Of a stretch of 56,547 nucleotides of DNA, positions 24,032-47,794 are shown piece by piece. This DNA comes from a virus (taxonomy: Duplodnaviria; Caudoviricetes), in the IMG/VR virus record IMGVR_UViG_3300034116_000182, positions 1-56,547 of that record; one strand, written 5' to 3'. The notes below the pieces were generated by a model that saw only the letters and a list, made by a program, of their open reading frames with translations, was not told the DNA's origin and made no database searches. Position 1 is the stretch's first letter, and each line of letters opens with the position of its first letter. Made by a program: the position numbers and the translations under genes.

Positions 24032-24076
24032 CACGTCCTATGTAATGCGCTGAAACAATTGCGTGAAAGGACATAT

Positions 24077-24358
24077 ATGGCAGAGAAGTACAAGTTCAAA
24101 GACCGTGCATGGGATGTCACCCACAAAGACGGTAGGCACCTCGACACGGTGACCGTGCATGGCGACGACGTGCGCCAAGCTTACGAAGGCTACAAACAGA
24201 TCAGCCCAAGCACCCACGAAGACGAGATCCTGAACAACGCCCTATGGAAAGTACTGGATAGACATAAGATCCAACCAGATGACATTGAAGTCAATGAAAA
24301 GGTGGATAAACCAAAGAAGGTTATCCGTAAGGCATCAGGTGGACGTGTTGGTTGGTAA
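24077..24358 (+). CDS. Hypothetical protein with C-terminal KASGGRVGW motif
   Basis: AAGGA RBS; first gene of the packaging operon. Confidence 0.7.
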   Translation: MAEKYKFKDRAWDVTHKDGRHLDTVTVHGDDVRQAYEGYKQISPSTHEDEILNNALWKVLDRHKIQPDDIEVNEKVDKPKKVIRKASGGRVGW

Positions 24359-24401
24359 CCACTAACATTTATCTAAAGTAGACGATTTTAGAGGAGCTAA
24401 C

Positions 24402-24749
24402 ATGGCACAAGGTGCAAAGACAGGCGGCAGGGTAGCTGGAACGCCCAACAAGGCGTCAACGGAAGCTAGACAGGCCATAGCCTCATTTGTTGATGGAAAC
24501 GCTCACAGGCTCACTGGATGGCTCGACAAGGTCGCTGAGGGTGTGCAAGATGCCGACGGTGCATACGTGGTGCCACCGAACCCAGCGAAGGCGTTTGACA
24601 TGTTCCAGTCGGTGGTGGAGTACCACATACCCAAACTGGCGCGTCAAGAGCATGTGGGTGACGACAACAAGCCATTGGTGATGGAGCACAACGTGAACGT
24701 GTTCGGTGAGTTGCTCAAGTCAATCAAGATGTCACGCCAAGCCGAATGA
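24402..24749 (+). CDS. terS: Terminase small subunit
   Basis: KTGGR..GTPNK N-terminus, PKLAR.E..G; directly upstream of TerL. Confidence 0.8.
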   Translation: MAQGAKTGGRVAGTPNKASTEARQAIASFVDGNAHRLTGWLDKVAEGVQDADGAYVVPPNPAKAFDMFQSVVEYHIPKLARQEHVGDDNKPLVMEHNVNVFGELLKSIKMSRQAE

Positions 24750-26185
24750 GCGCATTGGATGCAGTTCTGGCTGATCCCAGTATCCAGAAGGAATATGAAA
24801 CCCTGCATCCCATTGAGCAGGCGGTTATCAATTGGCAATTGAAGTGGCTAGGACAACAGGCGCATAAGCACCAGATCGAGCCGTCGGGTGACTGGTGGAA
24901 CATATGGTTGATGCTGGCAGGGCGTGGAGCAGGTAAGACACGCGCCAGCGCCGAGACGCTAGCAAGCTGGGCATGGGAGCAACCCAACACACGATGGCTT
25001 GTCTCAGCCCCTACGAGTGGCGACTTGAAGGGTACATGCTTCGAGGGTGACTCAGGGCTTATATCCGTCATACCGCCTGCACTGATAGCCAAGTACAACT
25101 CCAGCCTACATGAGATCCACCTGATCAATGGGAGCTTCATCAAGGGCATCCCAGCGTCGGAGCCAGAGCGCTTCAGGGGGCCGCAGTTCCACGGTGGCTG
25201 GCTGGACGAGCTAGCGGCATGGGAGTACCTGCGCGAGTCGTGGGACATGATCCAGTTCGGTATCCGACTAGGCCAGCGCACCAAGCTCATATGCTCGACG
25301 ACGCCTAAGCCTAAGGACGTGGTGATGGAGTTGATCGAGCGTGAGGGTGACGACGTGGTGATCACACGCGCCAGCACGTACAGCAACATGAAGAATCTGG
25401 CGCCATCGTTCCAAAAGCAGATCCTGCAGTACGAGGGTACGAACCTAGGTCGGCAAGAAATCCATGCTGAGATCATCGACCCTGAAGAGGGCGGCATCGT
25501 GCGTCGTGACTGGTTCAAGCTATGGCCTGCTCAGAAGCCTTTTCCCAAGCTTGAGTACATTATCCAGTCCTATGACTGCGCAACGTCTGACAAGACCGTT
25601 AACGACCCTACAGGGTGCATTACGCTGGGTGCCTTCAAGCCATTGGACGGCGGCATGTGTGTGATGGTGTTGGACTGCTGGCAGGAGCACCTACAGTATC
25701 CCGACCTGCGCCCCAAGGTGATCGACGAGTATGAGACGGTGTACGGTGAGGGACGAGCGAAGAAGCTGGTGGACTTGATCCTCGTGGAGGACAAGAGCGC
25801 TGGTATATCCCTGATCCAAGACTTGCAACGTGCTCACCTGCCCGTGCATGCGTACAACCCCGGCAGGGCGGACAAGATCCAGCGCCTGAGCATCGTGGCT
25901 AACATCATCAAGGCAGGGCGTGTCTGGGTGCCTGAGAGCACCGTCAAGAAAGGATTTGTGAGGGACTGGGCTGAAGGCATGGTCAGCCAGATCTGCTCAT
26001 TCCCTGAGGGTACGGTGCATGACGAGTTCGTTGACTGCATCTCACAGGGATTACGGTACATGCGTGACGCTGGATGGATCAGCATCGATGCACCACCACG
26101 CGAGGATCTGGACGAGGACGACATCTTTGATGCTGACGAGTTCAACCAACGTGCGCGTGGAAGAGAGAACCCATATGCAGTTTGA
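24746..26185 (+). CDS. terL: Terminase large subunit
   Basis: AGRGAGKT Walker A, WLDE Walker B, STTP coupling motif, SYD / VEDK / HDEFVD nuclease residues. Confidence 0.95.
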   Translation: MSALDAVLADPSIQKEYETLHPIEQAVINWQLKWLGQQAHKHQIEPSGDWWNIWLMLAGRGAGKTRASAETLASWAWEQPNTRWLVSAPTSGDLKGTCFEGDSGLISVIPPALIAKYNSSLHEIHLINGSFIKGIPASEPERFRGPQFHGGWLDELAAWEYLRESWDMIQFGIRLGQRTKLICSTTPKPKDVVMELIEREGDDVVITRASTYSNMKNLAPSFQKQILQYEGTNLGRQEIHAEIIDPEEGGIVRRDWFKLWPAQKPFPKLEYIIQSYDCATSDKTVNDPTGCITLGAFKPLDGGMCVMVLDCWQEHLQYPDLRPKVIDEYETVYGEGRAKKLVDLILVEDKSAGISLIQDLQRAHLPVHAYNPGRADKIQRLSIVANIIKAGRVWVPESTVKKGFVRDWAEGMVSQICSFPEGTVHDEFVDCISQGLRYMRDAGWISIDAPPREDLDEDDIFDADEFNQRARGRENPYAV

Positions 26186-26214
26186 AACTGTAGTTAACTA
26201 CACTTTGAAAAGTG

Positions 26215-26243
26215 TGGACGTGCCATGTTGGTGAAGGCATAAT
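26215..26243 (+). promoter_or_regulatory. Possible internal promoter for the multi-domain gene
   Basis: TGGACG-N17-CATAAT, preceded by the perfect palindrome TGTAGTTAACTACA. Confidence 0.5.
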
Positions 26244-26268
26244 GGGCGGCATTCATGAAGGACATTCC

Positions 26269-29200
26269 ATGATCCCAAGCAAGCCCCCTATGGGCATCAA
26301 TGTAGCGAGCGATACCAAGGCAGGGCTGAGGTACGCTGACATGATTGTCGATGGGCAGAAGACCCTTGAGTCACGCAACAGCGACACACTGCGCCCATAC
26401 GTTGGTAAGCGCGTGGCGATTGTCCGCACTGGTGAAGGCAAGGCTAAGGCTATTGGTGAGGTTACTATCGGTGAGCCGAAGGTGGTGAACCAAAAGCAGT
26501 TTCGTGCGATGGAGGGCGACCACTTAGTCCCCAAGGGATCGAGGTTTGACATCAATACGCCGACCAAGCATTTGTACCCTATGCATGATCCTGTGCGGTA
26601 CGAAGAGGAGCGCGACGTTGGTCACGGTATCGTGTCGCGCAAGGTAATACATAAAGCTAAAGGTGGAGCAGTGAAACCTACAATAGATCAGATGCGCCAA
26701 GCACTGGCAAAGGGTGGCAAGGTCGAGGTACGCCCCACCGTCAAAGATGAGAACTTGATGCGCAAGATCCCTCAGATGGAAGCGGCGGCTAAAAAGGTCG
26801 AAGAGGGCAAGATGAGCCACGAGGCTTACGACAAGGTGGTTGCCAAGCACAAGCCTGTCAAGCCGTATGAGTTCGTACCACAGCCTGCGTCAGACGAGGA
26901 TGCTGACCGTGCATTGATGGAGAACAAGAAACCCCATTGGCGAGGTCACGAAAACTGGCCTTCAGGTCGCAAAGTTGGCTTACGGTTGGACATCCCTGCA
27001 TACGAGAATCACGGCGTTTGGGTTAACTCCATCCATGATGAAGAAGGTAAAGGCGACGACAAGCGCAACACATCGTATGGTTCAGTGTCGTCGGTAAAGA
27101 ACGCCACGTTTGATGCTGGCCCAAGCAAAGCGATTAAGGTTGCCACTGGTGAGCAGAACAAGGCACCGTTTGCACGTATCAAGGGTGAGCTTCACCATAT
27201 GAGCGAAGACGAGGCAGTCGAGCACATGCAGAAGAACCTGAACCACAAAGACTACATTCAAGTGGGCATGGATCCTAGGCGTCATGGCTACTTCTATGAC
27301 CGTAAGACGATGAAGCCTGTAACGCATGCCAAGCACGTTGTGCAGATTGGCCCATTGGTGCTGGCGCATAAGCCTACCTATGGTGAGCGTGAGACGTATG
27401 CCAAGGGCGGCAAAGTGCAACCAACTCAACATGAAATGCGCCAAGCACTATTGCGTAAGGCAAGCGGTGGAGTTGTGCGCATGGCTGGTGGTGGCATCCT
27501 TCAGGACGTCATTAAGAAACCCGATGCCTCAAAGCAATTAAAGGGAGTCGTATTGTCTGGTGCAAGCTGGCTGGCTGGTGATCAGAACACTAAGCTTGCT
27601 AATCAAGCCTTTGGTGAAGACGTTACGAACACAGCGGTAGGTGGGTACAAGACAGCAGATGTGCTGAACCAACTGAACGTATTTGAGAGGGATGGAGGCA
27701 CCTTCGCCCCCGGCACCACGGTGGTGTTGGACATCGGTGCTAACGACATTGCCACTGGTGTAGATCCGTCGATCACACGCGCCAACTTAGATGAGATTGT
27801 CTCTAGGCTTGGTGAAAGCGGCGTCAACATTATTATGTCTGCCCAACCGTTTGCTAACTCGTTTCAAGAAGCCATTGACAACCCCAACTTGGTGATGAAC
27901 GAGATGTACAGCGACATTGCGGCAAACAACCCGAACGTAACAGTCGTTGATGCAATGTCGGGGTTTTTGAATCAAAAGAACCTGATGGATGAGTCTGGTT
28001 TCCACTTAAACAATGAGCAGTCAAAAGCAGATTACATCAACAAGTTTGCGGATGCATACAAGGCTAGAAACCAAACAACTCCAGATGTTGTAGACACCAC
28101 GTCTACTAACACGAATCCTATTGGTGGATTGACAGCAACCACGCCAGCAGACAATGTGCAAAACAACACGAATCAGTTGGCAGACGCGACTAAACTAGTG
28201 TCACCATTGGAGCAAGCTTCATTGGTTGAGCAGACACCAACTCCACCAGAGCCGATACAGCAGGCGTCCTACAAAATGCCTGAGTACGACACAGAGTCAA
28301 ACCGCTCATTCAAGAATTTTGATGACTACGGCGGTGGCATGATGGAGCGAGCTAAAGGCGGTGAAGTAAGAAGCCCATTTGACTACGAGAACCCATCACA
28401 CGTTGAAAACGTCGCTGGTATTGCCGCCAAGCATAGGGACTTCAATCAGATTCCTGATGCGGCTAAACACTTGGCTGGCGTGTTATCGCAGGGCAGTTAC
28501 AAGTTTGTTGAAGACCCACGCATTCAGAGTGCCATCAAGCAAGCAGGTCACAACGGCTACTACATAAGTGGCAAAGATGGCAAGCAACAAATTATTCGCA
28601 AAGCCGAAGGAGGCGCTGTGTTACCTATTGAACAAGTCAAAGCTCAGATGATGAACCGATTCAAAGGTCTGAATCAACTCCAATCCATTGGCGCCGAGGA
28701 AGCCCCCAGCATGGGCATTAAAGCGTATGTACCTACCACTGGTAGCCCAGACGCTGGTCGCATGCCTGTAGGCGGTATTGACACGTCTCAAGGGGATCTG
28801 CCTGTTGGTGGGATCGACATGAGCAAGCAACAGCCCGGTCACCAATTGATGCCCAGCCAACCGGGTCAGCAACCCGGCATGGGGCAGGTGCCTATGGCTG
28901 ACCAACCCCCTATGGATAGCATGCCTGTAAAGGGCGCAATGCAACCACAGCAAGCTGGAAGCAACATCTTGAGCATGACCCCCCAAGGACAAGCGATGGC
29001 GGCTCTAAAGCCCCAAGGTTTGGCTAAGGGCGGTAGCGCTAAGTCAGTTGACGAGATGAAAGCTGAGTTGGCGGCTAAGAAAAAGGCACAAGCGGCACCA
29101 GCGGCAAGCGACGACGATGATGATGAAGAAGAGGTGAAAGCGCCGTCCAAACGCATTTTGGTTAAAGCTGAAGGCGCTGGCGGAGTGACTGGTATTGTAA

Positions 29201-30984
29201 TCCCGCACCATATGCTTCATGGTCGCAGTTGGATCAACAAAAAAGGCAAGAAAGTTGTGGTGCCGGGACTTAAAGACATCAACAAAGCACGTGCTGAAGT
29301 TTATGGTTCTGAGAACCGTGATCCCTTGAGCATTGGTCAAACGGGCAAGATCCATAAAGAAACACTTGAGGATCACTTTGCCAAGCCACTTAAAGACCAG
29401 TTAGCCTCAGAGAAGGAAGCGACTGCACGTTTGCGAGCCGCTAAACACTTGGGTTCCAAAAACAACACGTTGGACGAGTCTGAGAAGCTGGATACTGTGC
29501 GTCATGAGACGGACGAAGAGGGTCGTACCCACGTTGGATTTGCTTCTAAGGGTGTGGCAGGTCATGCACTGTACACATCTGGACACGGCAAGAATGAAAA
29601 GCATCACATCATCAACACTTGCCCCGGTCAAACAGAGGGCTGTGGTGGCGGTAAAGACTCAAAGGGTGTGATCGACACTAGCCGTGGTACCTGCTTTGCA
29701 CCCAATGCCGAATCACAGTACGTGCATGCGGCTGTTCGTCGTGCAACACACGAACAAGCCAAGCACGACCCCAAGATGACACGCGATTGGATTTTGGCTC
29801 ATACAGGATCAATGCGTGATGCGGCAAACAAAGCAGACAAAAGTAATCAACGACTTTTGTTCCGTCCTAATGTTGTGGACGAGACTGACGTGTCTTCACG
29901 CCACGTGATCCGTCACTTGAATGAACAACGTAAAGTAAACGACAAGCCACCAATTATTGCTAACTCATACGGCAAGACAAATGAGTTGCATGACCCTGAG
30001 AATGGTTACCATGTGACGCATTCGAACGTAGGCCCAAAGGTCAAGAAGGGTCAAGAGATCAGCGAGAATATTGCTCGCGACAAAGCCCGTGTTCGCAACA
30101 CCATAATGGCGTCTGACAACAAGGGTGACTTTAAAAACGAACAGGGTCACAAGACGCCACCAAAGGGTTCGTACATGGTGACTGACGTTAAGCGTGGCTC
30201 TGAAATGTCTAAGAACATGGAGAAGCACATCACTCACGCCAAGTACTGGACGACTGGACGTGAACAGTATGAGTTGACACCGCAAGAGAAAGAAGAAGGC
30301 GCAGAAGGACATTTTGGTGGCAACGGCAAGCCTTCAAGCGAAGACGAGGCTCACTATGGTCATAAAACCATTGATGGAAAGCGTTATGACTACCAGAAGC
30401 AACACATCTTGCACCCACGCTTGGTGAACGTTCCTATTCGTAAAAAGAACAAAAAGACTGGTGAAATGGAAACTAAGGATCACATGATCCCTACAGATTC
30501 ACGTTTCAAAGACACTGAGTTCTTGCCCAAAAATAAATTTAAAACTAAAAATGGCAAAGACGCTGGTCACATCTTGATGACCACGCCTACTGAGTCCACA
30601 AGTAACATTGGTCACGAGACTTCATTCACTCACAATGTAAGCCCCAAGCACATCGAGCATGCAATTGAGAACAAAGGCGAGTACGAAATTGACAAACCAG
30701 AAGATCAAATTAAAGCTTCTAACAAAGAGTACCGCGCACCACAATCAATTAAGTTTTATGCTGGAGGCGGTCAAGTTGGTGGTCGTCACATTGGCTTTAG
30801 CGATGATGATTTCCATGCGTTCCCTGAGCAAAACGTGGTTGCACAACGTCACTTAGCTATGCGTGGACATGATCATGAACCAGTTGCAAAACACGGTTTG
30901 TCGAATACCAAACGCAAAGTTACAATGAACAAAGACATGGACACCATGTTGTTAGAACTGACACGTAACAAGAAAGCCAAATGA
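26269..30984 (+). CDS. Multi-domain (polyvalent) protein, about 1571 aa: ASCH-like, unknown, SGNH hydrolase, unknown, GP88-like domains joined by AxGGxV linkers
   Basis: YADMIVDGQKTLESR (ASCH); GAS/G/GAND/GFH blocks (SGNH); CPGQTEGC...CFA...FRPN...NSYGK (GP88-like); AAGGA RBS before ATG 26269. Confidence 0.75.
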   Translation: MIPSKPPMGINVASDTKAGLRYADMIVDGQKTLESRNSDTLRPYVGKRVAIVRTGEGKAKAIGEVTIGEPKVVNQKQFRAMEGDHLVPKGSRFDINTPTKHLYPMHDPVRYEEERDVGHGIVSRKVIHKAKGGAVKPTIDQMRQALAKGGKVEVRPTVKDENLMRKIPQMEAAAKKVEEGKMSHEAYDKVVAKHKPVKPYEFVPQPASDEDADRALMENKKPHWRGHENWPSGRKVGLRLDIPAYENHGVWVNSIHDEEGKGDDKRNTSYGSVSSVKNATFDAGPSKAIKVATGEQNKAPFARIKGELHHMSEDEAVEHMQKNLNHKDYIQVGMDPRRHGYFYDRKTMKPVTHAKHVVQIGPLVLAHKPTYGERETYAKGGKVQPTQHEMRQALLRKASGGVVRMAGGGILQDVIKKPDASKQLKGVVLSGASWLAGDQNTKLANQAFGEDVTNTAVGGYKTADVLNQLNVFERDGGTFAPGTTVVLDIGANDIATGVDPSITRANLDEIVSRLGESGVNIIMSAQPFANSFQEAIDNPNLVMNEMYSDIAANNPNVTVVDAMSGFLNQKNLMDESGFHLNNEQSKADYINKFADAYKARNQTTPDVVDTTSTNTNPIGGLTATTPADNVQNNTNQLADATKLVSPLEQASLVEQTPTPPEPIQQASYKMPEYDTESNRSFKNFDDYGGGMMERAKGGEVRSPFDYENPSHVENVAGIAAKHRDFNQIPDAAKHLAGVLSQGSYKFVEDPRIQSAIKQAGHNGYYISGKDGKQQIIRKAEGGAVLPIEQVKAQMMNRFKGLNQLQSIGAEEAPSMGIKAYVPTTGSPDAGRMPVGGIDTSQGDLPVGGIDMSKQQPGHQLMPSQPGQQPGMGQVPMADQPPMDSMPVKGAMQPQQAGSNILSMTPQGQAMAALKPQGLAKGGSAKSVDEMKAELAAKKKAQAAPAASDDDDDEEEVKAPSKRILVKAEGAGGVTGIVIPHHMLHGRSWINKKGKKVVVPGLKDINKARAEVYGSENRDPLSIGQTGKIHKETLEDHFAKPLKDQLASEKEATARLRAAKHLGSKNNTLDESEKLDTVRHETDEEGRTHVGFASKGVAGHALYTSGHGKNEKHHIINTCPGQTEGCGGGKDSKGVIDTSRGTCFAPNAESQYVHAAVRRATHEQAKHDPKMTRDWILAHTGSMRDAANKADKSNQRLLFRPNVVDETDVSSRHVIRHLNEQRKVNDKPPIIANSYGKTNELHDPENGYHVTHSNVGPKVKKGQEISENIARDKARVRNTIMASDNKGDFKNEQGHKTPPKGSYMVTDVKRGSEMSKNMEKHITHAKYWTTGREQYELTPQEKEEGAEGHFGGNGKPSSEDEAHYGHKTIDGKRYDYQKQHILHPRLVNVPIRKKNKKTGEMETKDHMIPTDSRFKDTEFLPKNKFKTKNGKDAGHILMTTPTESTSNIGHETSFTHNVSPKHIEHAIENKGEYEIDKPEDQIKASNKEYRAPQSIKFYAGGGQVGGRHIGFSDDDFHAFPEQNVVAQRHLAMRGHDHEPVAKHGLSNTKRKVTMNKDMDTMLLELTRNKKAK

Positions 30985-33500
30985 TGGACGAACTTGACCC
31001 AACACAAGATCCCATGATCACTGAGAATGAAGACGGCAGTGCTGATGTAGATCTGCCTGATGATCTGTCTGAGATCGAGGAGATGCCTGATGGATCGGCT
31101 GTTGTCACGATGCCTGACGGTGGCCCTGAAGAAAATCCAGACTTCTACTCCAACATGGCGGAGTCATACGACGAATATGATCTGTCTAAGTTGGCTATGC
31201 GTTATACCGACTTGCTCAAAACTGACAAGTCAGCGCGTGAGCAGAGGGATAAGCAGTACGAAGAGGGTATCAAGCGCACGGGTATGGGCAATGATGCGCC
31301 CGGCGGCGCCACCTTCATGGGTGCCAGCAAGGTAGTTCACCCTGCTATGGCTGAGGGCTGTGTTGACTTTGCCGCCAAAGCTATTAAAGAGATGTTCCCA
31401 CCTGACGGCCCTGTTCGCACTAAGGTGCTGGGCAAGATGGACGACATTAAATCTGAGAAGGCAGAGCGCAAACGCGACTACCTAAATTGGCAGATCACTG
31501 AGCAGATCGAGGAGTTCAGGGATGAGCAAGAGCAGTTGCTGACGCAGTTGCCATTGGGTGGCTCACAGTACTTCAAAATTTGGTTTGACGAGCAGAAGAA
31601 ACGTCCCTGCGTGGAGTTTGTTCCAATTGACAGGATCATTTTGCCGTTTGCCGCGAGTAACTTCTACACAGCACAACGTGCCGCTGAGGTTCATGAGATC
31701 ACCGCATGGGAATTCAATCGTCGAGTAGCCAGCGGTATGTACCGCAACATCGACATGATCCCCAACACGATGGAGCCTGAAATGTCGAAGGCTCAGAAGG
31801 CGACCAATAAGATTGAAGGTAAGAAGTTTGAAGACAACGACGATGGTTTGCGTAACGTCTACCACATCTACACTTACTTGGAGTTAGAAGAAGACAAGTA
31901 CACCAAGGGTGAGATGGCTCCTTACATCATAATGATTGACGAGTTGGACAACGAAGTCATTGGTCTGTACCGTAACTGGGAAGAGCAAGACGAAACGATG
32001 ACCAAGCTTGATTGGATTGTGGAGTTCAAGTTCATTCCTTGGAGGGGTGCATATGCGATTGGATTACCTCATCTTATTGGCGGTCTGTCTGCCGCTCTTA
32101 CAGGCTCTTTACGCGCTTTATTGGACTCTGCCCATATCAATAATGCCGCAACCATGCTCAAGCTCAAGGGCGCAAAGATGTCTGGTCAGTCACAACAGGT
32201 GGATGTGACGCAGATTGTGGAGATTGAGGGAGCGCCGGGCGTCCAAGACATTCGCCAGATCGCCATGCCCATGCCGTTTAACCCACCTTCAGAGGTCTTA
32301 TTTAGGCTCCTAGGCTGGTTAGATACAGCGGCGAAGGGGGTAGTGTCCACCTCAGAGGAAAAAATTGCTGACGTCAACGCTAATGCCCCTGTAGGCACCA
32401 CTCAAGCATTGATTGAGCAGGGAGCGGCGGTGTTCTCATCGATCCACGCACGTTTGCATGAGTCACAAGCGCGTGTATTGAAGATCTTGTGCCGGCTAAA
32501 CCGTTGGCACTTTGACGAGATGCGCAAGTCTGACGTGGTTGCAGATCTGGAGATCAGCCGCGAAGACTTCCAAAAGAACACGGACGTAATTCCTGTATCT
32601 GATCCGCATATCTTCTCTGAGACACAGCGTATGGCTCAGATGCAAGCTGTGTTGTCATTAGCAGATAAACACCCTGAGCAGTTCAACATGAACAAGGTGT
32701 TGGCTCGCTCGCTCAAGCAGATGAAGATACCTAACATCAATGAATTGATGAAGGATGTCCCATCGCCTGAACAGCGTACTTCTGCTGACGAGAATGCGGC
32801 TATGTTGATTGGTCAGCCAGCGTATGCGTACATGCAACAGGATCACATTGCTCACATTCAGGATCACTTGCAATTTGCGATGAACCCATTCTTGGGCCAG
32901 TCACCGTTTGCAGATCCCGGCTACCTGAACAACCTGATCGAGCACATTAAGCAACACATGACCTTGTGGTACTTGAACCGCAGTAACGGTTACGTGGCTC
33001 AGTCTCGCAACGGTAAGCCCGTGGACAACTACGATGATCCAATGCTCACAGGCACCATTGACCAGCTTTACACGGCTGTTGGTGCTCACGTTGGCATGGA
33101 TACAAAGGAAGTGTTTGAGCAGTTTGCTCCAGCGTTCCAAGCGCTTATTCAGCAAGCACAGAAGCGCAAAGATGCACAGAAGCAAGTGCTACCGCCAGAT
33201 GCACAAGTTGTCAAAGACACAAACATGGCAGAGACTCAGCGCAAGACGCAAGAGGATCAAGCTCGTTTGCAACTCGACACTCAAAAATTGCAGATGGATA
33301 TGCAAAAGCACCTCGAAGACAACAAGACAAAGATTGCCATCGAGAATGCAAAGCTGACACATCAAACGATTACGGATATTGCAACTACGCAAATGCCCGA
33401 AACCGCGCCTACAATGGGCGCACCAATGGCAGAGATGCCGCAACAAGGTATGCCAGAAGGCATGCCACAACCTCAAGGAGTTCCAAATGTCAACATCTGA
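30981..33500 (+). CDS. Portal protein
   Basis: 839 aa after TerL; HP.MAE.CV.F.A.A..E.FP..GPVRTKV, LPL.GS...K, APVGTT.ALIEQG motifs. Confidence 0.9.
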   Translation: MMDELDPTQDPMITENEDGSADVDLPDDLSEIEEMPDGSAVVTMPDGGPEENPDFYSNMAESYDEYDLSKLAMRYTDLLKTDKSAREQRDKQYEEGIKRTGMGNDAPGGATFMGASKVVHPAMAEGCVDFAAKAIKEMFPPDGPVRTKVLGKMDDIKSEKAERKRDYLNWQITEQIEEFRDEQEQLLTQLPLGGSQYFKIWFDEQKKRPCVEFVPIDRIILPFAASNFYTAQRAAEVHEITAWEFNRRVASGMYRNIDMIPNTMEPEMSKAQKATNKIEGKKFEDNDDGLRNVYHIYTYLELEEDKYTKGEMAPYIIMIDELDNEVIGLYRNWEEQDETMTKLDWIVEFKFIPWRGAYAIGLPHLIGGLSAALTGSLRALLDSAHINNAATMLKLKGAKMSGQSQQVDVTQIVEIEGAPGVQDIRQIAMPMPFNPPSEVLFRLLGWLDTAAKGVVSTSEEKIADVNANAPVGTTQALIEQGAAVFSSIHARLHESQARVLKILCRLNRWHFDEMRKSDVVADLEISREDFQKNTDVIPVSDPHIFSETQRMAQMQAVLSLADKHPEQFNMNKVLARSLKQMKIPNINELMKDVPSPEQRTSADENAAMLIGQPAYAYMQQDHIAHIQDHLQFAMNPFLGQSPFADPGYLNNLIEHIKQHMTLWYLNRSNGYVAQSRNGKPVDNYDDPMLTGTIDQLYTAVGAHVGMDTKEVFEQFAPAFQALIQQAQKRKDAQKQVLPPDAQVVKDTNMAETQRKTQEDQARLQLDTQKLQMDMQKHLEDNKTKIAIENAKLTHQTITDIATTQMPETAPTMGAPMAEMPQQGMPEGMPQPQGVPNVNI

Positions 33501-33633: not shown

Positions 33634-33812
33634 TTGAACAATTGATCCATGTGATCAAGATTCGACAAGCAGAATTGGCGCAGTCCCTTGCCTTGGGGAA
33701 TGCGTTCAACTGGGAGTCATACCAACGGATGGTCGGTGAGTATCAGGGGTTGAAGTACACCCTTGATTCACTGGACAACATCCTGCAAGAGCAAGAAGGT
33801 AGAGAAGATTAA
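33630..33812 (+). CDS. Small conserved head-module protein, 60 aa
   Basis: W.SYQRMVG.YQGL motif typical between portal and GroES in such phages. Confidence 0.75.
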   Translation: MIEQLIHVIKIRQAELAQSLALGNAFNWESYQRMVGEYQGLKYTLDSLDNILQEQEGRED

Positions 33813-33892
33813 CCCCAATCCTTGGGGCTAAAGGCCGCGCTGAAAAGTGCTTTAACGATGCACCTGAAATATGGTGATTTTTAGGAGTGAGT

Positions 33893-34351
33893 ATGAGTGA
33901 GAAAGAAAAGATCCCGACGATTTCGGGAAGTGAAGGCGTACCCGATCAACAGGAGCTAAAGTGGGCTTTCCCCGACGTGAGTCCGGGTCAAAAGCCGTTC
34001 GGTGGTCGCGTAGTTGTACAGCTACGACGCATCAAAAAGACAACTGCCAGCAAGATCATTTTGGTTGCCGAAACCAAAGAGACTGAGAAGTGGCAGAACA
34101 TGATTGGTCGAGTGGTGGAGATTGGCCCTCTGGCCTTTAAGAACCGCGAGACTATGGAGTCATGGCCCGAAGGTAGCTGGGCAAGCGTAGGCGACTACGT
34201 GCGAGTACCTAAATGGGGCGGTGATCGTTGGGAGCGCGAGGTTCCTAACGAAGAGGGTAACGAAGACCCTGTTCTTTTTATGACCATCAACGACCACGAA
34301 TTGATTGCGAAAGTCACAGACGATCCGCTTTCATTCAAGGCTTATGTTTAA
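33893..34351 (+). CDS. groES: Phage co-chaperonin GroES (Cpn10)
   Basis: PFGGRVVV...TASKIIL...GRVVEIGP...VGDYV..PKWGG...IND.ELIAKV. Confidence 0.85.
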   Translation: MSEKEKIPTISGSEGVPDQQELKWAFPDVSPGQKPFGGRVVVQLRRIKKTTASKIILVAETKETEKWQNMIGRVVEIGPLAFKNRETMESWPEGSWASVGDYVRVPKWGGDRWEREVPNEEGNEDPVLFMTINDHELIAKVTDDPLSFKAYV

Positions 34352-34363
34352 TTGGAGAATTTC

Positions 34364-35335
34364 ATGAGTACTGAAGACAAAAAAGAAGTAGATTTGAACA
34401 TTGAAGAGACGAAAGACGGCTCTGCAGTGATTGATCTGCCTGAAAGTATGCTTTCTTCTGAAGATGGAGACGAAATTGCCGAGAGAAGTACTGGCGGTGA
34501 CGTATCTGCAGAAGAAGATGACCATCCTGATGACTCTGATGCTGTAAGAGCGGCAAAAAGAGCACGTCGCAGGTCTAAAAAAGACCTGATTCGCAAGACG
34601 AATGAGGAAAAAGACGCTCGATTGCAACAACTGCAACGAGAAAACGAAGAATTCAAGCGTCGTTTGTCTAATGTGGAGCGTGAGACTAAGAATAGTCAGA
34701 TCGCACGTATTGACAAACACCTAGAAGACCAGAAAGTGCGCTTGGAATACGCCAAGATGAAGCTGTCCGAGGCTGTACAAGCTGGTGACGGTGACGCGAT
34801 GGTGGAAGCGCAGACGATGTGGAACGAAGCGCAAGCCGCAGTGGGCGAATTTGCTCGTGCAAAGCAATCTGCAGAGCGTGAAGCACAAAATCGCAACGAC
34901 ACACCTGTTGTTGACCCTACAGTGCAACGCAATGCCGCTGACTGGATGCGTCGTAATTCATGGTATCGCCCAGATACCTCAGACCGTGACTCGCAAGTCG
35001 CCAAAAAGGTTGACGAACTGCTAGTTACAGAAGGAATGAACCCCTCTGATCCAGATTATTGGGATGAATTAGATAATCGCTTGCAAAAAGCATTACCACA
35101 CCGCTACAATGACAACAACGACAGTAATTCTGCTGTTAGAAAACCGAGGAACGTTGTGGGTAGTTCAGGTCGTGAAGCTTCAGCCGCATTTGGTGGTAAC
35201 AACCGCACACAATTCGTGCTTTCTCCCGAACGGGTCAAAGCTATGAAGGAAGTGGGCGCTTGGGACAACCCCACGCGCAAGAAAGCAATGATTGAAAACT
35301 TCATCAAATATGACCGTGCAAACGGCACCCGTTAA
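34364..35335 (+). CDS. Capsid scaffolding protein
   Basis: Acidic N-terminus, long coiled coil, W..RN.W, position before the capsid genes. Confidence 0.75.
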   Translation: MSTEDKKEVDLNIEETKDGSAVIDLPESMLSSEDGDEIAERSTGGDVSAEEDDHPDDSDAVRAAKRARRRSKKDLIRKTNEEKDARLQQLQRENEEFKRRLSNVERETKNSQIARIDKHLEDQKVRLEYAKMKLSEAVQAGDGDAMVEAQTMWNEAQAAVGEFARAKQSAEREAQNRNDTPVVDPTVQRNAADWMRRNSWYRPDTSDRDSQVAKKVDELLVTEGMNPSDPDYWDELDNRLQKALPHRYNDNNDSNSAVRKPRNVVGSSGREASAAFGGNNRTQFVLSPERVKAMKEVGAWDNPTRKKAMIENFIKYDRANGTR

Positions 35336-35355
35336 CTAATACTTGGAAAACTATC

Positions 35356-35904
35356 ATGACTGAATCACGTCTCAAAAAATCTCTCAACGCTGGTGGACGC
35401 AAGGATCGCGGAAGCGAGGATGCAACCCGCACAGCACCTGAGGATAAGTTCATTTCTACGCAGGAACGTCGCAAGATGTGGAGCGAGGAGTGGACGCAAT
35501 CAGCCTTGCCAAAACTGCCCAACATGGATGGGTGGCACCTTTGCTGGCTTTCGACAACCAACAGCTACGACTCCATCGATAAGCGGATTCGCCTAGGGTA
35601 CGTTCCAGTTAAATCTGAAGAGTTACCGGGGTATGAAGACTATCGCGTGAAGGCGGGAGAACATGTTGGGTATATCTCTTGTAACGAAATGTTACTGTTC
35701 AAACTACCTATGGATGTATTTCAAGAGATCATGATGCATCATCATCACGACCAACCTCGTGAAGAAGCTGAGAAGATTCGTGTTCAATTGGAAAGCTTGC
35801 AAGGTCAACGTGACAGCAACGGTAAGCGACTTGTGGATGTCGAGGGTGAAGGTATTGGTAATTTTGATCAACAGCCAAGCAAAACGCCCGTATTTTCGGG
35901 CTAA
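35356..35904 (+). CDS. Conserved head-module protein, 182 aa
   Basis: GWHLCW.ST...KRIRLGY.PV..EE; context. Confidence 0.7.
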   Translation: MTESRLKKSLNAGGRKDRGSEDATRTAPEDKFISTQERRKMWSEEWTQSALPKLPNMDGWHLCWLSTTNSYDSIDKRIRLGYVPVKSEELPGYEDYRVKAGEHVGYISCNEMLLFKLPMDVFQEIMMHHHHDQPREEAEKIRVQLESLQGQRDSNGKRLVDVEGEGIGNFDQQPSKTPVFSG

Positions 35905-35919
35905 CCAAAGGAGTCTATT

Positions 35920-36516: not shown

Positions 36517-36535
36517 TTTAAAGGGAGCATAAATT

Positions 36536-37450
36536 ATGGCCGCCCCAATGCGCAGTACGGACTTTAGAAGCATCGTTGAACCTATTCTCAACGAGTGCTT
36601 CGATGGAGTCTATGACCAACGAGCCGACGAATGGAGCCGTGTGTTCCGTGAAGAAGATGGCATTCCCCGTAACTACCACGAAGAACCCGTCTTGTACGGT
36701 TTCGGCGCGGCACCTCAGTTGCCTGACGGCACTCCTGTGACGTACCAACAAGGTGGTGTGTTGTTCCTCAAACGCTATGTGTACAAAGTGTATGGCCTTG
36801 CCTTCGCTCTGACCAAAGTGTTGGTGGAAGACGGTGATCACATCCGTATCGGTCAAGTTTATGCACGTCACTTGGCACAGTCTTTGGTGGAAACCAAAGA
36901 GTTGTTGTCAGCTAACGTGTTGAACACAGCGTTCAGCTCAAGCTACCCCGGTGGCGACGGCGTGTCCCTGACCAATACTGCTCACCCAATTGTGAACGGT
37001 ACATTCAGCAACCAATTGGCTACATCTGCCAACTTGTCCCAGACTTCTTTGGAACAAATGTTGATCCAGATCCGTCAAGCAGTTGACAACAACGGCAAGA
37101 AGATTCGTTTGGTTCCACGTCAATTGATCGTGGCTCCCGGCAACATCTTCCAAGCTGAAGTTCTCTTGAAATCTGTCTTGCGTACAGGTAACGCAAACAA
37201 CGACATCAACCCTGTCAAGTCCATCGGTTTGTTGGACGAAGGCGCGGCTGTTCTGTCACGTTTGACTAGCCCTACAGCATGGTGGGTTCAGACCGACGCT
37301 CCTGAGGGCTTCAAGCTCTTGATGCGTCGTCGTTTGGAGAAAACTATGGAAGGTGACTTCGAGACTGACTCTATGCGCTACAAAGCGACAGAGCGTTACG
37401 ACGTTGGCTTCACTGACCCTCGTGCCGCCTACGGTACAGCAGGCGTCTAA
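36536..37450 (+). CDS. Major capsid protein (HK97 fold, Mu gpT-like)
   Basis: GFG.AP...G..V.Y, GGDGV.L....HP, P..LIV.P, ME.DFET...RYKA.ERY..G..DPR..YG. Confidence 0.92.
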   Translation: MAAPMRSTDFRSIVEPILNECFDGVYDQRADEWSRVFREEDGIPRNYHEEPVLYGFGAAPQLPDGTPVTYQQGGVLFLKRYVYKVYGLAFALTKVLVEDGDHIRIGQVYARHLAQSLVETKELLSANVLNTAFSSSYPGGDGVSLTNTAHPIVNGTFSNQLATSANLSQTSLEQMLIQIRQAVDNNGKKIRLVPRQLIVAPGNIFQAEVLLKSVLRTGNANNDINPVKSIGLLDEGAAVLSRLTSPTAWWVQTDAPEGFKLLMRRRLEKTMEGDFETDSMRYKATERYDVGFTDPRAAYGTAGV

Positions 37451-37453
37451 GCC

Positions 37454-37487
37454 AAAGGGGTGGAATATACTCCACCCCTTTTTTTTA
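37454..37487 (+). terminator. Terminator after the major capsid gene
   Basis: AAAGGGGTGGA-ATATAC-TCCACCCCTTT followed by a T-tract. Confidence 0.9.
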
Positions 37488-37518
37488 ATCTGATCAAGCT
37501 TTTCAAGGAGAAGATCAA

Positions 37519-38496
37519 ATGCCACAATTTTCCGACGATTTATTTCTAGGTTCCGCTGTTACCTATCAAGGTGCGGACGCCTACCCTGCTGTTGCAACTT
37601 TTACTGGTTCAATTTCTACCACTACACTTACAGTCACCGCGATGCTTTCTGGTGACAATATTGCTGTTGGTATGTTTATTGACAGTTCAACTTCACTTAC
37701 CAATGGAACTTACATTACCGCTTTTGGTACAGGTTCTGGCGGTGTAGGAACTTACACCGTAAGTGCCTCACAAACTGTAGCAAGCTCCACAATTGTCGGC
37801 TCTGGTAATGCTTTGTTGCAAAACCCATCCACAATGACTGTAGGTGTTGGCCCATTGGGTCGCGTCTATATTTGGGACGCTGTACCACAGGCAAAACTGA
37901 CGACTAACATTGTTGCCGCCGCCATTACAACTGCTACCACGCTCACGCTTGCCGCAGGTGCTGGTGTTACATCAACAACCATTGTTGGCGGTACAACAGG
38001 CTTGCAACTTGATTGCCCTCGTGCCGTGTGTACAACCACTGGTGCTGGTTCTCCAACTTCTGTCAACATTACTGTTTCTGGTTACGACTACTACGGTCAA
38101 GCCATGAGCGAGGTAATTGCAACAGGAACAGTGGCATCAACAACTGTTAATGGTAAAAAAGCCTTCTACCAGATCTCTAGTGTCACTGCTTCTGGCGGAA
38201 GTGTGGTAACTGTTGCGGTAGGTACAACCGACATCTTGGGCGCACCATTGCGTATCATTGATAGAGGCTACGTTACCCGCGCTGGTTGGGACAATACTTT
38301 GGCTGAAGATGCTGGAACTATGACTGTTGCCGCTACCGCCACAGCAACCACAACCACTGGTGATGTGAGGGGTACTTATTTGCCCTCGTCTGCTTGTGAC
38401 GGTATCAAGCGTCTTGTAATGGGAATAGCCCTGCCAGCAATTGCGGCAGGCCCGAATGCAACTCGTGTTGGCGCGTTTGGCGTCACACAAGCATAA
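37519..38496 (+). CDS. Virion structural protein, Thr/Gly-rich beta protein, 325 aa
   Basis: [14 protein letters not shown]...GTYTVS module; DCPR...V.GYDYYGQ.MSE; position after capsid. Confidence 0.7.
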
Positions 38497-38506
38497 GGAG
38501 AGCAAC

Positions 38507-39646
38507 ATGGGACAATTTAAACCAATGGTCAAAATGATGACCACTGAGCCTTCAGTTATTCTGAAGCTAAAGAAAGGCGGCAAAGTAGAGCACAAGATGG
38601 ACGGTGGGTATATGCCCATGCAGTCAACTATGCCTGCTCAAGCAATGCCAGCAATGCCTGCTCGTGGTGGTTTAGCTTCTGCGGCTAGCCCCATGAAACC
38701 GTCTATGGCGGCTCGTCGCAAGGCGATGATGGCAAAGCCTGCTATGAGTCCTACCCTGATGAAAAAAGGTGGTAAGACTGACAAGCATGAAGACGCCGCT
38801 CAAGATCGTGCAATGATCAAAAAGGCTATGGCTGGTAAGAAGTTTGCAACTGGTGGCGTTGTCAACGGTCAAGGTGGCTTCAAGGATGGTGGCATCATCA
38901 AGTCAACCAAGGGCGAGACAAAGATGGTAACTTCCAAAGTTGACCACTCACCTGCCAAAACTGGCGGTGTGAAGTTGGGCAATGGCGGTGGTTATGCTAC
39001 TGGTGGCGTTGCTAAGGCTAATGGTGGTGGTTACAAGATGGGTGGTTCCACAAAAAAAGCCTACGCGACGGGGGGAACTGTTGATACAGGCAAACCCGTC
39101 GCGATGCCCAAAAAGCCAGTATCAAAGCCAATAGCAAACAGTTTGCAGTCTGGAACGTTTGCTAAAGGCGGTAAGGTCGAGAAAGCGGAAAAACCAAACC
39201 TCCGCCTTATCAAGACTTACACTGGCCCTAAAGGACACGTAGCAAAAGTTTACAAGGATCGTGACTGGCAAGAGTACAGAACTAAGTTCTATACTCCTGA
39301 CGGTAAGTATCTAACTGAAGGCGACTCACACACTGATGACGCTGAAGATGCTCACTCAACAGCCAAGAACCAAGTAGAACACTCTCGCTATAAGCATGGT
39401 GGCACAGCGAAACGCTATAACACTGGAAGCACCGTAGACGCATCAAAAGGCGCATACGATAAATCTATTGGGCCAAGCGAGAGCGATATGGACATGGCGA
39501 AAGCTATCCGTAGCGTTCCACGCAAGCTGTTTGAAGGTGCGAAGAGCATGATGGGTATGACCCCCAAGCCTGCTGGTAGTGTTACAAAGACTGAGAAATC
39601 AGTTACTGTGACTCCTGCTGGCAAAAAGCGTGGTGGTGGTTGTTAA
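38507..39646 (+). CDS. Basic protein with about 10 GG motifs and a probable -1 frameshift
   Basis: AAGGAG RBS; LKKGGKV, FATGGVV, YATGGTV, FAKGGKV and others; ends KKRGGGC*. Confidence 0.8.
   Translation: MGQFKPMVKMMTTEPSVILKLKKGGKVEHKMDGGYMPMQSTMPAQAMPAMPARGGLASAASPMKPSMAARRKAMMAKPAMSPTLMKKGGKTDKHEDAAQDRAMIKKAMAGKKFATGGVVNGQGGFKDGGIIKSTKGETKMVTSKVDHSPAKTGGVKLGNGGGYATGGVAKANGGGYKMGGSTKKAYATGGTVDTGKPVAMPKKPVSKPIANSLQSGTFAKGGKVEKAEKPNLRLIKTYTGPKGHVAKVYKDRDWQEYRTKFYTPDGKYLTEGDSHTDDAEDAHSTAKNQVEHSRYKHGGTAKRYNTGSTVDASKGAYDKSIGPSESDMDMAKAIRSVPRKLFEGAKSMMGMTPKPAGSVTKTEKSVTVTPAGKKRGGGC
39052..39103 (+). other. Candidate programmed -1 ribosomal frameshift signal
   Basis: In-frame A_AAA_AAA, 5-nt spacer, perfect 9-bp stem CGCGACGGG/CCCGTCGCG; the -1 frame stops at 39082-39084. 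Confidence 0.7.
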
Positions 39647-39651
39647 GTAAG

Positions 39652-39677
39652 GTGGGGGCTTCGGCTCCCACTTTTTA
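39652..39677 (+). terminator. Rho-independent terminator
   Basis: GTGGGGGC-TTCG-GCTCCCAC-TTTTT. Confidence 0.9.
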
Positions 39678-39690
39678 ATTGGAGAGATTT

Positions 39691-40470
39691 ATGGGAACTT
39701 ATTCTTCTGCAACGCGCCAAGGGGCGTATGAGCCATTTGAACTGCAAGTAGCCCGTGGGCAAGTTGACGGTCACAAAGCCTTATTTAAATTCGGCATCAA
39801 CGGTGATGTCGGCACATCTGTTGAAACAGTTTGGGCGCAAGGTGGTACATATGTGTATCCTACCGCCGCAACTGTTATGAAAATCTCTAGCTCAAGTGCA
39901 GACGATACTTCTGCTGGAACTGGCGCAAGAACAATTGCTATTTTTGGTCTTGATGCAAATTACAACGAGATTAGCGAGTCGGTGCTTCTAGATGGGCAGA
40001 CAGCAGTCAACACTGGAAACAGTTACTTGCGGATTTCTAGGATGTATGTAACCACAGCAGGTTCGGGTGCAACTGCCGTAGGAACTATCTACGCTGGCAC
40101 TGGCACTGTTACTTCTGGTGTTCCTGCAACCGTTTACGGCATGATTGCTATTGGTGCAAACCAAACGCAGATGGCGTTTTGGACTGTACCTGCTGGGTAC
40201 ACCTTGTATTTGATGGGAGTTTTTTACACATCTGGAAACGCAACCGCAAATTCTTGGACAAACTTTCAATTGAATCAGCGTCCGTTGGGCGGAGTTTTTA
40301 GACAACAAACTTCTGCTAGGGTTGCTGGCAGTGGTGACTTTATTCTTGACCTGCACACCCCTCTTGTTTTTGCTGAAAAGACAGACCTTGAAATTAGGGC
40401 AATTGCTTCAGCAGGAACTTCAAACGTATCTGCCGAGTTTGAAGGCATCTACATTCAGAACCCTGACTAA
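39691..40470 (+). CDS. Probable virion structural protein, 259 aa
   Basis: KFG.N.DV...ETVW..GG.Y.YP...GTGART..I.GLD.NY beta-rich family; GGAG RBS. Confidence 0.65.
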   Translation: MGTYSSATRQGAYEPFELQVARGQVDGHKALFKFGINGDVGTSVETVWAQGGTYVYPTAATVMKISSSSADDTSAGTGARTIAIFGLDANYNEISESVLLDGQTAVNTGNSYLRISRMYVTTAGSGATAVGTIYAGTGTVTSGVPATVYGMIAIGANQTQMAFWTVPAGYTLYLMGVFYTSGNATANSWTNFQLNQRPLGGVFRQQTSARVAGSGDFILDLHTPLVFAEKTDLEIRAIASAGTSNVSAEFEGIYIQNPD

Positions 40471-40472
40471 TC

Positions 40473-40883
40473 ATGTCTGCCAAAGAAAAAGCCATGAAAA
40501 AAGCTAACGGTGGCTCTACAAGCCCGTATGACTACGATAGTGACGTTGACTACTACAGTGCAATTGGTCGCCTCAAAGAAGAAGGCGATGAGTCGCAAGA
40601 AGCACCTCGCATTAGCTCTGCTGTTTTAAACAAGCAAAAGACTATGCGCAGAAAGAATGCGGCGGACAGTGCAATGTCACTGGCGGCTAAACGTGCTGGT
40701 GATAAAGACGCTGACAAAAAAGTTCAAGATCGTTGGTCGCGTCGTGATCAATCTGAAAAATTAAAGTTCAAAGCCAAAACATCAAAAGCACCTGTTGCTG
40801 AGTCTGCTCGTAAAGAGTGGTCTGAAAAGATCGGTAAGGGCAAACCCGCTCCATTTAAAACAGGTGGCAGTTCCTGCTGGTAA
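40473..40883 (+). CDS. Basic hypothetical protein with GG motifs at both ends
   Basis: KKANGGST ... FKTGGSSCW*. Confidence 0.7.
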   Translation: MSAKEKAMKKANGGSTSPYDYDSDVDYYSAIGRLKEEGDESQEAPRISSAVLNKQKTMRRKNAADSAMSLAAKRAGDKDADKKVQDRWSRRDQSEKLKFKAKTSKAPVAESARKEWSEKIGKGKPAPFKTGGSSCW

Positions 40884-40886
40884 ATC

Positions 40887-41063
40887 ATGAAACAAGGTCT
40901 ATATGAAAATATTCATCGAAAACGTGAAAGAATCGCTAAAGGGTCTGGCGAGAAGATGCGCCGAGTTGGTAGCGAAGGTGCGCCAACGTCTAAAGCCTTC
41001 AGGCAATCCGCCAGAACAGCCAAAATGAAGGATGGCGGCAAGATGACAAAGTCTTGCTGGTGA
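40887..41063 (+). CDS. Small basic protein, 58 aa (GLY.NIH.KR.RI..GSGEKMR family)
   Basis: Read by hand; ends MKDGGKMTKSCW*. Confidence 0.75.
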   Translation: MKQGLYENIHRKRERIAKGSGEKMRRVGSEGAPTSKAFRQSARTAKMKDGGKMTKSCW

Positions 41064-41065
41064 TC

Positions 41066-46101: not shown

Positions 46102-46107
46102 GGATAT

Positions 46108-47793: not shown

Positions 47794-47794
47794 A

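Follow-up and report, generated by a model that had tools for sequence, protein, structure and literature searches.

A conserved Gly-Gly heptad at the joints and ends of phage head-module proteins, a candidate processing or addressing signal

The viral record IMGVR_UViG_3300034116_000182 (IMG/VR; Duplodnaviria, Caudoviricetes) raises the question of why one short peptide with a Gly-Gly core recurs on otherwise unrelated proteins of a phage head gene cluster. The whole stretch analysed here, referred to as the window, comprises the entire viral record, which is complete at 56,547 bp and bounded by direct terminal repeats. An earlier prediction made on this DNA described the peptide (hereafter the motif or tag) as a portable signal which loads effector domains into the capsid and/or marks them for cleavage. 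The comparisons presented below point to a selected, portable short linear motif, present above the level given by composition. Judged from the sequences, it marks the joints and the ends of accessory head-module proteins, which appear to be built as beads on a string. The reading preferred here, tentatively and with a probability of about 0.45, is that of a processing signal in head maturation, with or without an addressing role.

Motif copies in the window and their chance expectation

A scan of the whole proteome located 24 copies of the heptad [KYFML]-[AK]-x-G-G-x-[VIA] in five proteins of the head module, which comprise 2,262 amino acids (aa). The remaining 61 open reading frames (ORFs; 14,346 aa) hold 4 motif copies. 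The five carriers and their copies are listed below, with the strand in brackets.

24059-24358 (+), small basic protein encoded 5′ of the small-terminase-like gene, ending with the motif and GW (relatives end KASGGRVGW or KATGGRSCW)
24329-24349 (+), KASGGRV, C-terminal copy
26212-30984 (+), multidomain pre-portal protein, 1590 aa, 9 copies between domains
26653-26673 (+), KAKGGAV
26704-26724 (+), LAKGGKV
27397-27417 (+), YAKGGKV, right behind the phrog_586 domain
27457-27477 (+), KASGGVV
27481-27501 (+), MAGGGIL
28348-28368 (+), RAKGGEV, where the alignment with the shorter MW202545 orthologue begins
28600-28620 (+), KAEGGAV, gene split point in the relatives L070 and L076
29020-29040 (+), LAKGGSA
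30757-30777 (+), YAGGGQV, ahead of the conserved C-terminal tail
38507-39646 (+; ORF opens at 38441), Lys/Gly-rich (K/G-rich) protein, 379 aa, 11 copies, ending KKRGGGC
38567-38587 (+), LKKGGKV
38759-38779 (+), MKKGGKT
38843-38863 (+), FATGGVV
38879-38899 (+), FKDGGII
38993-39013 (+), YATGGVA
39014-39034 (+), KANGGGY
39032-39052 (+), YKMGGST
39062-39082 (+), YATGGTV
39158-39178 (+), FAKGGKV
39389-39409 (+), YKHGGTA
39623-39643 (+), KKRGGGC, C-terminal copy
40473-40883 (+), basic protein, 136 aa, one copy near each end, ending FKTGGSSCW
40500-40520 (+), KANGGST
40854-40874 (+), FKTGGSS, C-terminal copy
40887-41063 (+), basic module, 58 aa, phrog_16028, ending MKDGGKMTKSCW
41025-41045 (+), MKDGGKM, C-terminal copy

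The counts per protein were made with the 5-mer pattern [FYLMKR][AK]xGG, to which the 7-mer adds V/I/A two residues after the GG, and chance was estimated by 2,000 residue shuffles of each protein. The 9 copies of the pre-portal protein stand against a shuffled mean of 0.63 (5-mer) or 0.15 (7-mer) and were reached in 0/2,000 shuffles. The K/G-rich protein (38441/38507-39646) has 11 copies against a shuffled mean of 0.55, again reached in 0/2,000, and 7 of the 11 also carry V/I/A two residues after the GG, for which the shuffled mean is 0.13 (0/2,000). Among the smaller carriers, the 2 copies of the 40473-40883 protein (mean 0.04) were reached in 1/2,000 shuffles, the single C-terminal copy of the 24059/24077-24358 protein (mean 0.01) in 30/2,000, and that of the 40887-41063 protein (mean 0.07) in 134/2,000. 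Two stricter controls, in which residues were shuffled inside 20-aa blocks or the neighbours were shuffled with every GG fixed, gave 0/2,000 for both large carriers. Composition as the cause of the motif is excluded by the three shuffle schemes.

The preference is not limited to preselected copies. If all GGs of the carriers are included regardless of their context, the positions that carry information are -3 (Y/F/K/M/L), -2 (A/K) and the second residue after the GG (V/I/A), and the shell proteins have no such preference around GG. At the nucleotide level, the 26 copies compared have a mean pairwise identity of 0.48. Since the codons differ between copies which share 48% of their bases, the selection acts on the peptide. 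A DNA-level repeat or an internal Shine-Dalgarno-like signal is excluded by the same figure; moreover, the Gly codons are mostly GGT/GGC and not of the GGAGG type.

Several other matches to the pattern were set apart from the tag. The four Gly-rich tail proteins at 45238-50739 (1,703 aa) contain 9 pattern matches (YAGGGGG and similar), which are the product of composition. One match each occurs in 41324-42397 and 54628-56547. In relatives, matches of the 41324-type adaptor fall within its F5/8-type-C domain, and adaptor matches were not counted as the tag, since these positions lie within a folded domain. The matches in the small-terminase-like protein 24402 belong to a different N-terminal motif, of the K-K-T-G-G-R-V-A-G-T-P-N-K type.

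The enrichment is retained in relatives, namely 80 contigs recruited by the portal (75-99% identity) and MW202545. The observed and expected numbers of copies are 446/54 for the pre-portal proteins, 479/37 for the K/G-rich proteins, 33/1.3 for the 40473-type and 11/0.9 for the 40887-type. Two further families are enriched, the scaffold-like protein (28/2.1) and g35356 (7/1.7). The values for the other head genes are 1/10.7 for the terminase, 2/10.4 for the portal, 0/4.6 for the capsid, 0/4.7 for the GroES-like protein, 0/7.4 for g35920 and 1/9.3 for g37519.

The inventory of the original prediction has largely held. It had named nine heptads in 26269-30984, which are exactly those found, about ten copies in 38507-39646, where 11 were counted, two copies in 40473, and a single C-terminal copy in each of 24077 and 40887, all of which are present. 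The motif had been reported as missing from early/replication proteins, portal and capsid, and these ORFs of the window indeed hold 0 copies, as does the terminase. The diversity of codons is borne out by the identity value given above. Two points on which the prediction was to be judged also came out in its favour: the enrichment per gene class recurs in the same families of related phages, and the Lys/Gly composition does not explain the motif in shuffled controls. The three copies assigned to the 439-6027 protein did not survive. Only 2 were found, against 0.66-2.2 expected, and 265 to 1,354 of 2,000 shuffles reach this number. This is the chance level, and the protein is no carrier.

Modules and ends marked by the motif

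The pre-portal protein is composed of an ASCH domain, a phrog_586 domain, a GDSL/SGNH hydrolase, a small domain, a P/Q/G-rich module, a large GP88-like domain and a conserved tail. The Pfam and PHROG matches cover aa 40-109 (ASCH), 264-377 (phrog_586), 461-602 (GDSL) and 1128-1221 (GP88-like), and all 9 motif copies lie outside every one of them; together with the termini of the other carriers, this agrees with the placement at domain borders and termini claimed earlier. Matches to Protein Data Bank (PDB) sequences are SGNH esterases and concern the GDSL part only, and the large C-terminal domain gave no usable Atlas match. A helix-like element (P-[ST]-x-x-[QE]-M-[RK]-x-A-L type) begins only a few residues behind several of the copies, and the pair of motif and element occurs again at the extreme C-terminus.

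26674-26709 (+), companion helix-like element, P-T-I-D-Q-M-R-Q-A-L type, behind a motif copy
about 27418-27456, 28621-28662 and 29041-29082, and 30928-30981 at the extreme C-terminus, other copies of the helix-like element
28621-29040 (+), P/Q/G-rich module, aa 804-943 of the pre-portal protein

In relatives, the interval between terminase and portal extends from 2.2 to 7.3 kb and contains one to three genes. The P/Q/G-rich module is the sole module present in all 67 pre-portal regions compared. Its conserved islands are I-G-A-N-E-A-P, L-P-V-G-G-V-D-M-S, Q-P-G-Q-Q-L-M-P and S-N-I-L-Q-M-T-P-Q-G-Q-A-M. The phrog_586 domain was considered as a universal or autoprocessing domain and rejected, as the copy of the window has no Cys and BLAST found only 10 further loci.

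Where the pre-portal gene is split, the motif lies in the last 30 aa of 14/23 distinct upstream C-termini, and the rest are mostly near-misses. The downstream genes are of two types. The first begins with the helix-like element which follows the motif in the fused forms, and the second is conserved and lies behind a fixed tail of 13 aa. This tail, T-H-A-H-H-L-[ED/Q]-I-E-E-R-[PS]-L, ends 15/23 distinct upstream C-termini (L023, L028, L032, L036, L037, L040-L046 and others). The gene after it starts with M-K-E-L-V-G-K-G on the last base of the upstream ORF, so that the genes abut or overlap in the loci whose coordinates were read.

The second large carrier, the K/G-rich protein (14.5% Lys, 13.2% Gly), shows the same organisation. 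A phrog_7884 domain (39215-39376) is inserted between two motif copies; stretches similar to this domain occur in the Pseudomonas phages Alpheus and uligo. An alignment of 38 sequences is conserved mainly at the motif copies, as well as in the N-terminal region and in a C-terminal block, and the stretches between these islands are variable and rich in insertions and deletions. More than 5,000 database relatives exist, all unnamed; the best 120 of them have 8-13 copies each, with a shuffled median of 1. A search for longer relatives yielded 3, and the cluster look-up gave no names. P0273 is a 668-aa K/G-rich string with phrog_7884-like and phrog_16028-like modules, in which copies flank each module.

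The small basic modules are combined in a similar manner. Relatives join the modules of 40473, 40887 and DUF6321 type to one another in various combinations, and every joint coincides with a motif copy. The DUF6321 module (41066-41314, + strand), the last of the three small basic proteins of the window, has no motif copy of its own, and in relatives it is joined behind the 40887-type module via a motif copy. Two of these modules are also known from phages in which they are not tagged: in S-SBP1 and HTVC168P, which are T7-like marine phages, phrog_16028 and DUF6321 are separate untagged small genes between scaffold and capsid, and in CRP-5 they are free-standing in another context.

The C-termini of the stand-alone carriers are also constrained. 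Those of the K/G-rich proteins consist of [KR]-K-[RQ]-G-G followed by 0-5 residues ending with Cys (30/33 distinct), and the final residue is Cys in 120/120 of the best 120 database relatives. The small modules end with G-G and 1-7 residues closing with [CSGND]-W (13/13 and 5/7 distinct). Among the control families, such ends were found in the terminase in 1/57 distinct sequences and in the other thirteen families in 0. In the window, the C-termini ending with Cys or Cys-Trp are encoded at 39623-39646, 40863-40883, 41046-41063 and 41300-41314. Untagged small basic proteins of other phages also end with W or C (K-W-K-C and K-V-K-W types).

Two further head-module proteins carry the motif at a single N-terminal site, which in the window has the form of a near-miss.

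34352-35335 (+), scaffold-like protein, one near-miss copy
34484-34504 (+), RSTGGDV, near-miss in the scaffold-like protein; relatives have a true copy, KA[ED]GGxV, at this site
35356-35904 (+), g35356, 182-aa conserved head-module protein of unknown fold
35383-35403 (+), LNAGGRK, N-terminal near-miss in g35356; LKAGGR in some relatives

In relatives, the copy of the scaffold-like protein is a single conserved site near residue 45, within an acidic stretch, and that of g35356 is a single site near residue 10. Caulobacter phage RW shares with the window the arrangement of portal, GroES-like protein, scaffold, g35356-like protein, g35920-like protein and 304-aa capsid. The multidomain pre-portal protein, the K/G-rich protein and the tag are all missing from RW, and the tag site is not present in its scaffold and g35356 homologues. 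Thus, the tag of the scaffold-like protein and g35356 travels with the set of carriers and not with the shell.

Two podoviruses at a greater distance, CRP-207 and MW202701, also have the motif; their structural regions have no tblastn match to the capsid or portal of the window. In MW202701, the equivalent protein holds three copies and small basic proteins hold another three; one of these small proteins ends with the motif and a tail closing with Cys. The tag is an addition of the lineage of the window and a few others. A second motif, of the D-I-P-A-x-L-x-x-G-[DE]-Y-V-x-x-A-x-x-V-x-A-L-G type, follows Gly-Gly copies in CRP-207 gp58 and in a 994-aa protein of MW202701; the 439-6027 protein (1862 aa) has two copies of it towards its C-terminus, at about 5695-5930 (aa 1753-1830).

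Processing, docking and other explanations

The bearers of the tag are the pre-portal protein, the K/G-rich protein encoded after the capsid gene, several basic modules of 50-130 aa and, with one copy each in the N-terminal region, the scaffold-like protein and g35356. Gene fusion and fission fall at the tag, which fits the logic of a polyprotein or of a cargo cassette. The free-standing modules of the T7-like phages suggest that such modules work as separate proteins, and their fusion here argues that the fused forms are separated after translation. In the proposed mechanism, a procapsid factor would recognise the tag and would cut at or next to the Gly-Gly, which would set free each bead as a small protein or enzyme domain of its own. 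The tag, possibly with the helix-like element after it, may hold the carriers with the scaffold until the cutting. In function it would then correspond to the signals for capsid targeting and cleavage in T4 or to the Gly-Gly sites of adenovirus. Recognition, cleavage and residence of the carriers in the virion are what we infer for this mechanism. Regarding the loading or cleavage proposed in the original prediction, the part that stands is a portable protein-level tag, conserved, on unrelated proteins of the head cluster and at fusion and fission points; the extension to 439-6027 falls, as this protein is untagged.

Several observations weigh against processing. First, none of the enzyme-like or folded domains of the pre-portal protein occurs in all 67 regions. 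Second, the conserved Cys or Cys-Trp after the C-terminal tag of stand-alone proteins would be needless for a pure cleavage site; the retention of the tag together with these residues is an argument for recognition of the peptide itself as well. Third, copies in the K/G-rich protein lie 6-10 aa apart, and very small peptides would result if all were cut. Fourth, no peptidase was found by Pfam in 34/36 ORFs of at least 150 aa (the two unscanned ones are glycine-rich paralogues), nor among the 20 proteins scanned with PHROGs. Finally, the positional candidate for a protease, g35356, was rejected, as it has no solved-fold match and its homologue is present in the tag-free phage RW.

The search for a protease or receptor covered specific families as well. 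In the same 34/36 ORFs, no Pfam match was obtained to a clan CE cysteine protease, a C39 peptidase or an ABC exporter. The pre-portal protein has no Pfam match to MuF or embedded metallopeptidase domains, and no ubiquitin-like fold, deubiquitinase-like or papain-like enzyme was found in the genome by the Pfam scans. The K/G-rich protein matches 0 Pfam families even at E up to 10, and this includes PF10685, the KGG stress repeat. The g35356 model reached a pLDDT of 52 with a shallow alignment and of 85.8 with a deep one (AlphaFold). The profile search collected 410 relatives or representatives at E up to 0.001, in which H61, W64, D72, R77, Y82, E111 and H130 are nearly invariant; its Cys is conserved, yet not kept family-wide, and the N-terminal Gly-Gly is limited to close relatives. 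In Foldseek against the PDB, the best E was 0.57, with no solved-structure neighbour, and the matches were only to unnamed or uncharacterised viral models. Profile searches against PDB sequences gave nothing, and the Atlas gave only unnamed viral clusters. The earlier statement that no prohead protease is recognisable is upheld by the Pfam scans, by the selected PHROG scans and by this fold.

The explanation that survives best beside processing, possible if somewhat unlikely, is that of a docking tag only. Here the peptide would be a cargo-loading signal which binds the shell interior, the scaffold, the portal or a K/G-rich hub, and the multidomain proteins would be packaged uncut. The failure to find a protease by Pfam, by PHROGs and by the g35356 fold suits this explanation, as do the C-terminal copies on the stand-alone proteins (30/33, 13/13 and 5/7 distinct) and the eleven copies on one disordered protein, which suit multivalent binding. 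Furthermore, every pre-portal type, whatever its large domain, keeps a copy near its end: in 59/66 cases, the final 80 aa encoded by the gene preceding the portal contain one, and 35/53 distinct ends of pre-portal proteins carry a D-T-M-x-L-E-L-type tail. However, all structured candidate receptors (capsid, portal, scaffold, g35356-like and g35920-like proteins) are also present in the tag-free RW, and CRP-207 and MW202701 use the tag though they lack a tblastn match to the capsid and portal of the window. Docking also has to face the fusion, in the lineage of the window, of modules which are separate elsewhere.

A passive linker, in which a helix stop and a flexible hinge join modules with no partner and no processing, is unlikely. 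GG is a common helix terminator, the copies are situated in linkers, and in several of them the residues before the GG end the preceding helix-like element (Q-M-R-Q-A-L-A-K-G-G type). However, a hinge requires neither a preferred residue at -3 nor V/I/A two residues after the GG. This explanation leaves unaccounted for the copies within 10 aa of the ends and the Cys or Cys-Trp tails, the dense helix-free copies of the K/G-rich protein, and the finding that the scaffold-like protein and g35356 have each gained a copy only where the carriers are present.

A maturation of the core on the adenovirus model is likewise doubtful. It assumes that polyproteins or tagged proteins are cut at Gly-Gly in the head, by a protease of unrecognised fold or a host enzyme, that the Cys-Trp and Cys tails serve as covalent cofactors or anchors, and that the same tag addresses cargo to the procapsid. 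The likeness lies in a Gly-Gly core after a large residue on basic, DNA-associated core precursors. In the adenovirus study, the Met-Arg-Gly-Gly substrate contains the consensus, and pVIc is an 11-residue basic C-terminal peptide ending with Cys-Phe, released from its precursor, whose Cys forms a disulfide bond with the protease and whose Phe is buried (PMC4246237). The phage tails past the last Gly-Gly resemble pVIc as portrayed there, being short, basic and ending with Cys-Trp or Cys; this resemblance may serve as a lead and is no test of mechanism. The (M/L/I)xGG likeness which had been claimed earlier fails on the register, which is shifted by one: adenovirus has M/L/I two before the GG, whereas the phage motif has A/K at this position and the large residue three before. 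In addition, adenovirus is an animal virus, and no clan CE or other peptidase was found in the phage.

A sticker for nucleic acids or condensates is quite improbable. According to this explanation, the disordered K/G-rich proteins, with stickers made of an aromatic residue or Lys plus Gly-Gly, would form condensates among themselves or together with the packaged DNA, and bearers of the sticker would partition there. The Lys and Gly content of the K/G-rich protein, the strongly basic small modules and the multivalent, irregularly spaced motif are in its favour. Nevertheless, the scaffold-like copies lie in strongly acidic surroundings, and Glu or Asp occupies the variable position in many copies. 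Chance, composition or a DNA-level repeat, to which the chance-level matches in the Gly-rich tail proteins and in 439-6027 do conform, is refuted for the five carriers by the three shuffle schemes on the two large ones, by the nucleotide divergence of the copies and by the enrichment kept across 80 contigs, and has next to no probability.

Comparison with known systems and the surrounding genes

A close comparison for processing is the capsid-targeting signal of phage T4. This signal is N-terminal, single, different in sequence and cut by a known protease, whereas a protein described here can have as many as 11-14 copies, which occur in its interior as well as at either terminus, with no recognisable protease gene. 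The encapsulin cargo-loading peptide is short, often C-terminal on the cargo, present in one copy per cargo and encoded next to an HK97-fold shell gene, and its binding to the shell has been demonstrated. The phage tag resembles it in the C-terminal copies, found on the distinct ends counted above, and in the carrier genes which flank the capsid gene; it differs in sequence, and the shell genes of the window are shared by phage RW, which lacks the tag. The head-to-tail modules with a Gly-Gly at each joint and few residues past the last one also resemble polyubiquitin and Gly-Gly polyproteins. In contrast to C39 double-glycine leaders, the phage copies are internal or C-terminal and not N-terminal leaders. 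A mimic of the co-chaperonin loop, which binds GroEL, was set aside, as the residues after the GG are mostly polar and RW has a GroES-like gene without the motif.

The T4 likeness itself is twofold. One short peptide is the sole thing common to otherwise unrelated head proteins, which here is known from sequence; a T4 review states that, among the diverse internal proteins, only the targeting sequence is conserved (PMC3012670). The set of carriers, comprising a scaffold, small basic proteins and an enzyme-bearing protein, is of the same kind. Iyer et al. (2017, PMC5512222) predict that polyvalent proteins are packaged and delivered, and their idea of processing rests on embedded metallopeptidase domains. 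The ASCH, SGNH hydrolase and GP88-like domains of 26212-30984, between terminase and portal, recall such proteins, whereas the embedded metallopeptidase is absent from the Pfam matches of the pre-portal protein. In the main text of PMC5512222, the terms 'glycine', 'linker' and 'GG motif' occur 0 times, and a junction tag is not described.

Signals on head-internal proteins are already known, and the Gly-Gly junction form is new as far as the literature was searched; full-text searching turned up nothing relevant on processing at Gly-Gly in the virions of phages. Should the tag serve in processing or loading, it would give a sequence rule for the head contents of an abundant group of freshwater and marine podoviruses. 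Cargo enzymes would become readable from metagenomes, the missing maturation enzyme or receptor would be pointed to, and a short portable tag for the loading of foreign proteins into capsids would be available. As far as the literature was searched, it would also be the first example from a phage of the joining of modules at Gly-Gly that eukaryotic viruses and ubiquitin-like systems are known for. On the adenovirus-like reading, any domain between two tags would be packaged and delivered. Even a mere linker habit would leave the tag useful in annotation, as a mark of module borders.

The head cluster has the order 24059-24358, small-terminase-like gene (24402), large terminase, 26212-30984, portal, GroES-like protein, scaffold-like protein, g35356, g35920, capsid, g37519, Lys/Gly-rich protein, g39679, three small basic proteins (40473-41314) and SU10-type adaptor. 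Its main untagged genes are as follows.

24746-26185, large terminase, Terminase_6N
30981-33500, portal, phrog_1216
33887-34351, GroES-like protein, Pfam Cpn10 (E 1.5e-5), phrog_3188
36536-37450, capsid, Phage_capsid_4

The GroES-like co-chaperonin gene lies inside the head module, with the portal on one side and the scaffold on the other, and RW has a gene annotated as co-chaperonin GroES at the equivalent place. At 2445-5247 of the same phage (L088), two genes are annotated as 'large terminase subunit' with a SAM-dependent methyltransferase gene between them, and a tRNA-Val lies between terminase and portal. At 45238-50739, the tail region of the window encodes four paralogues (Pfam Gly_rich_2) in which glycine makes up 31-36% of the residues. 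The gene that separates them (48668-49021; 117 aa) has a product 60% identical to CRP-207 gp53. The lysis genes and a second adaptor-type gene are located at 51711-53359.

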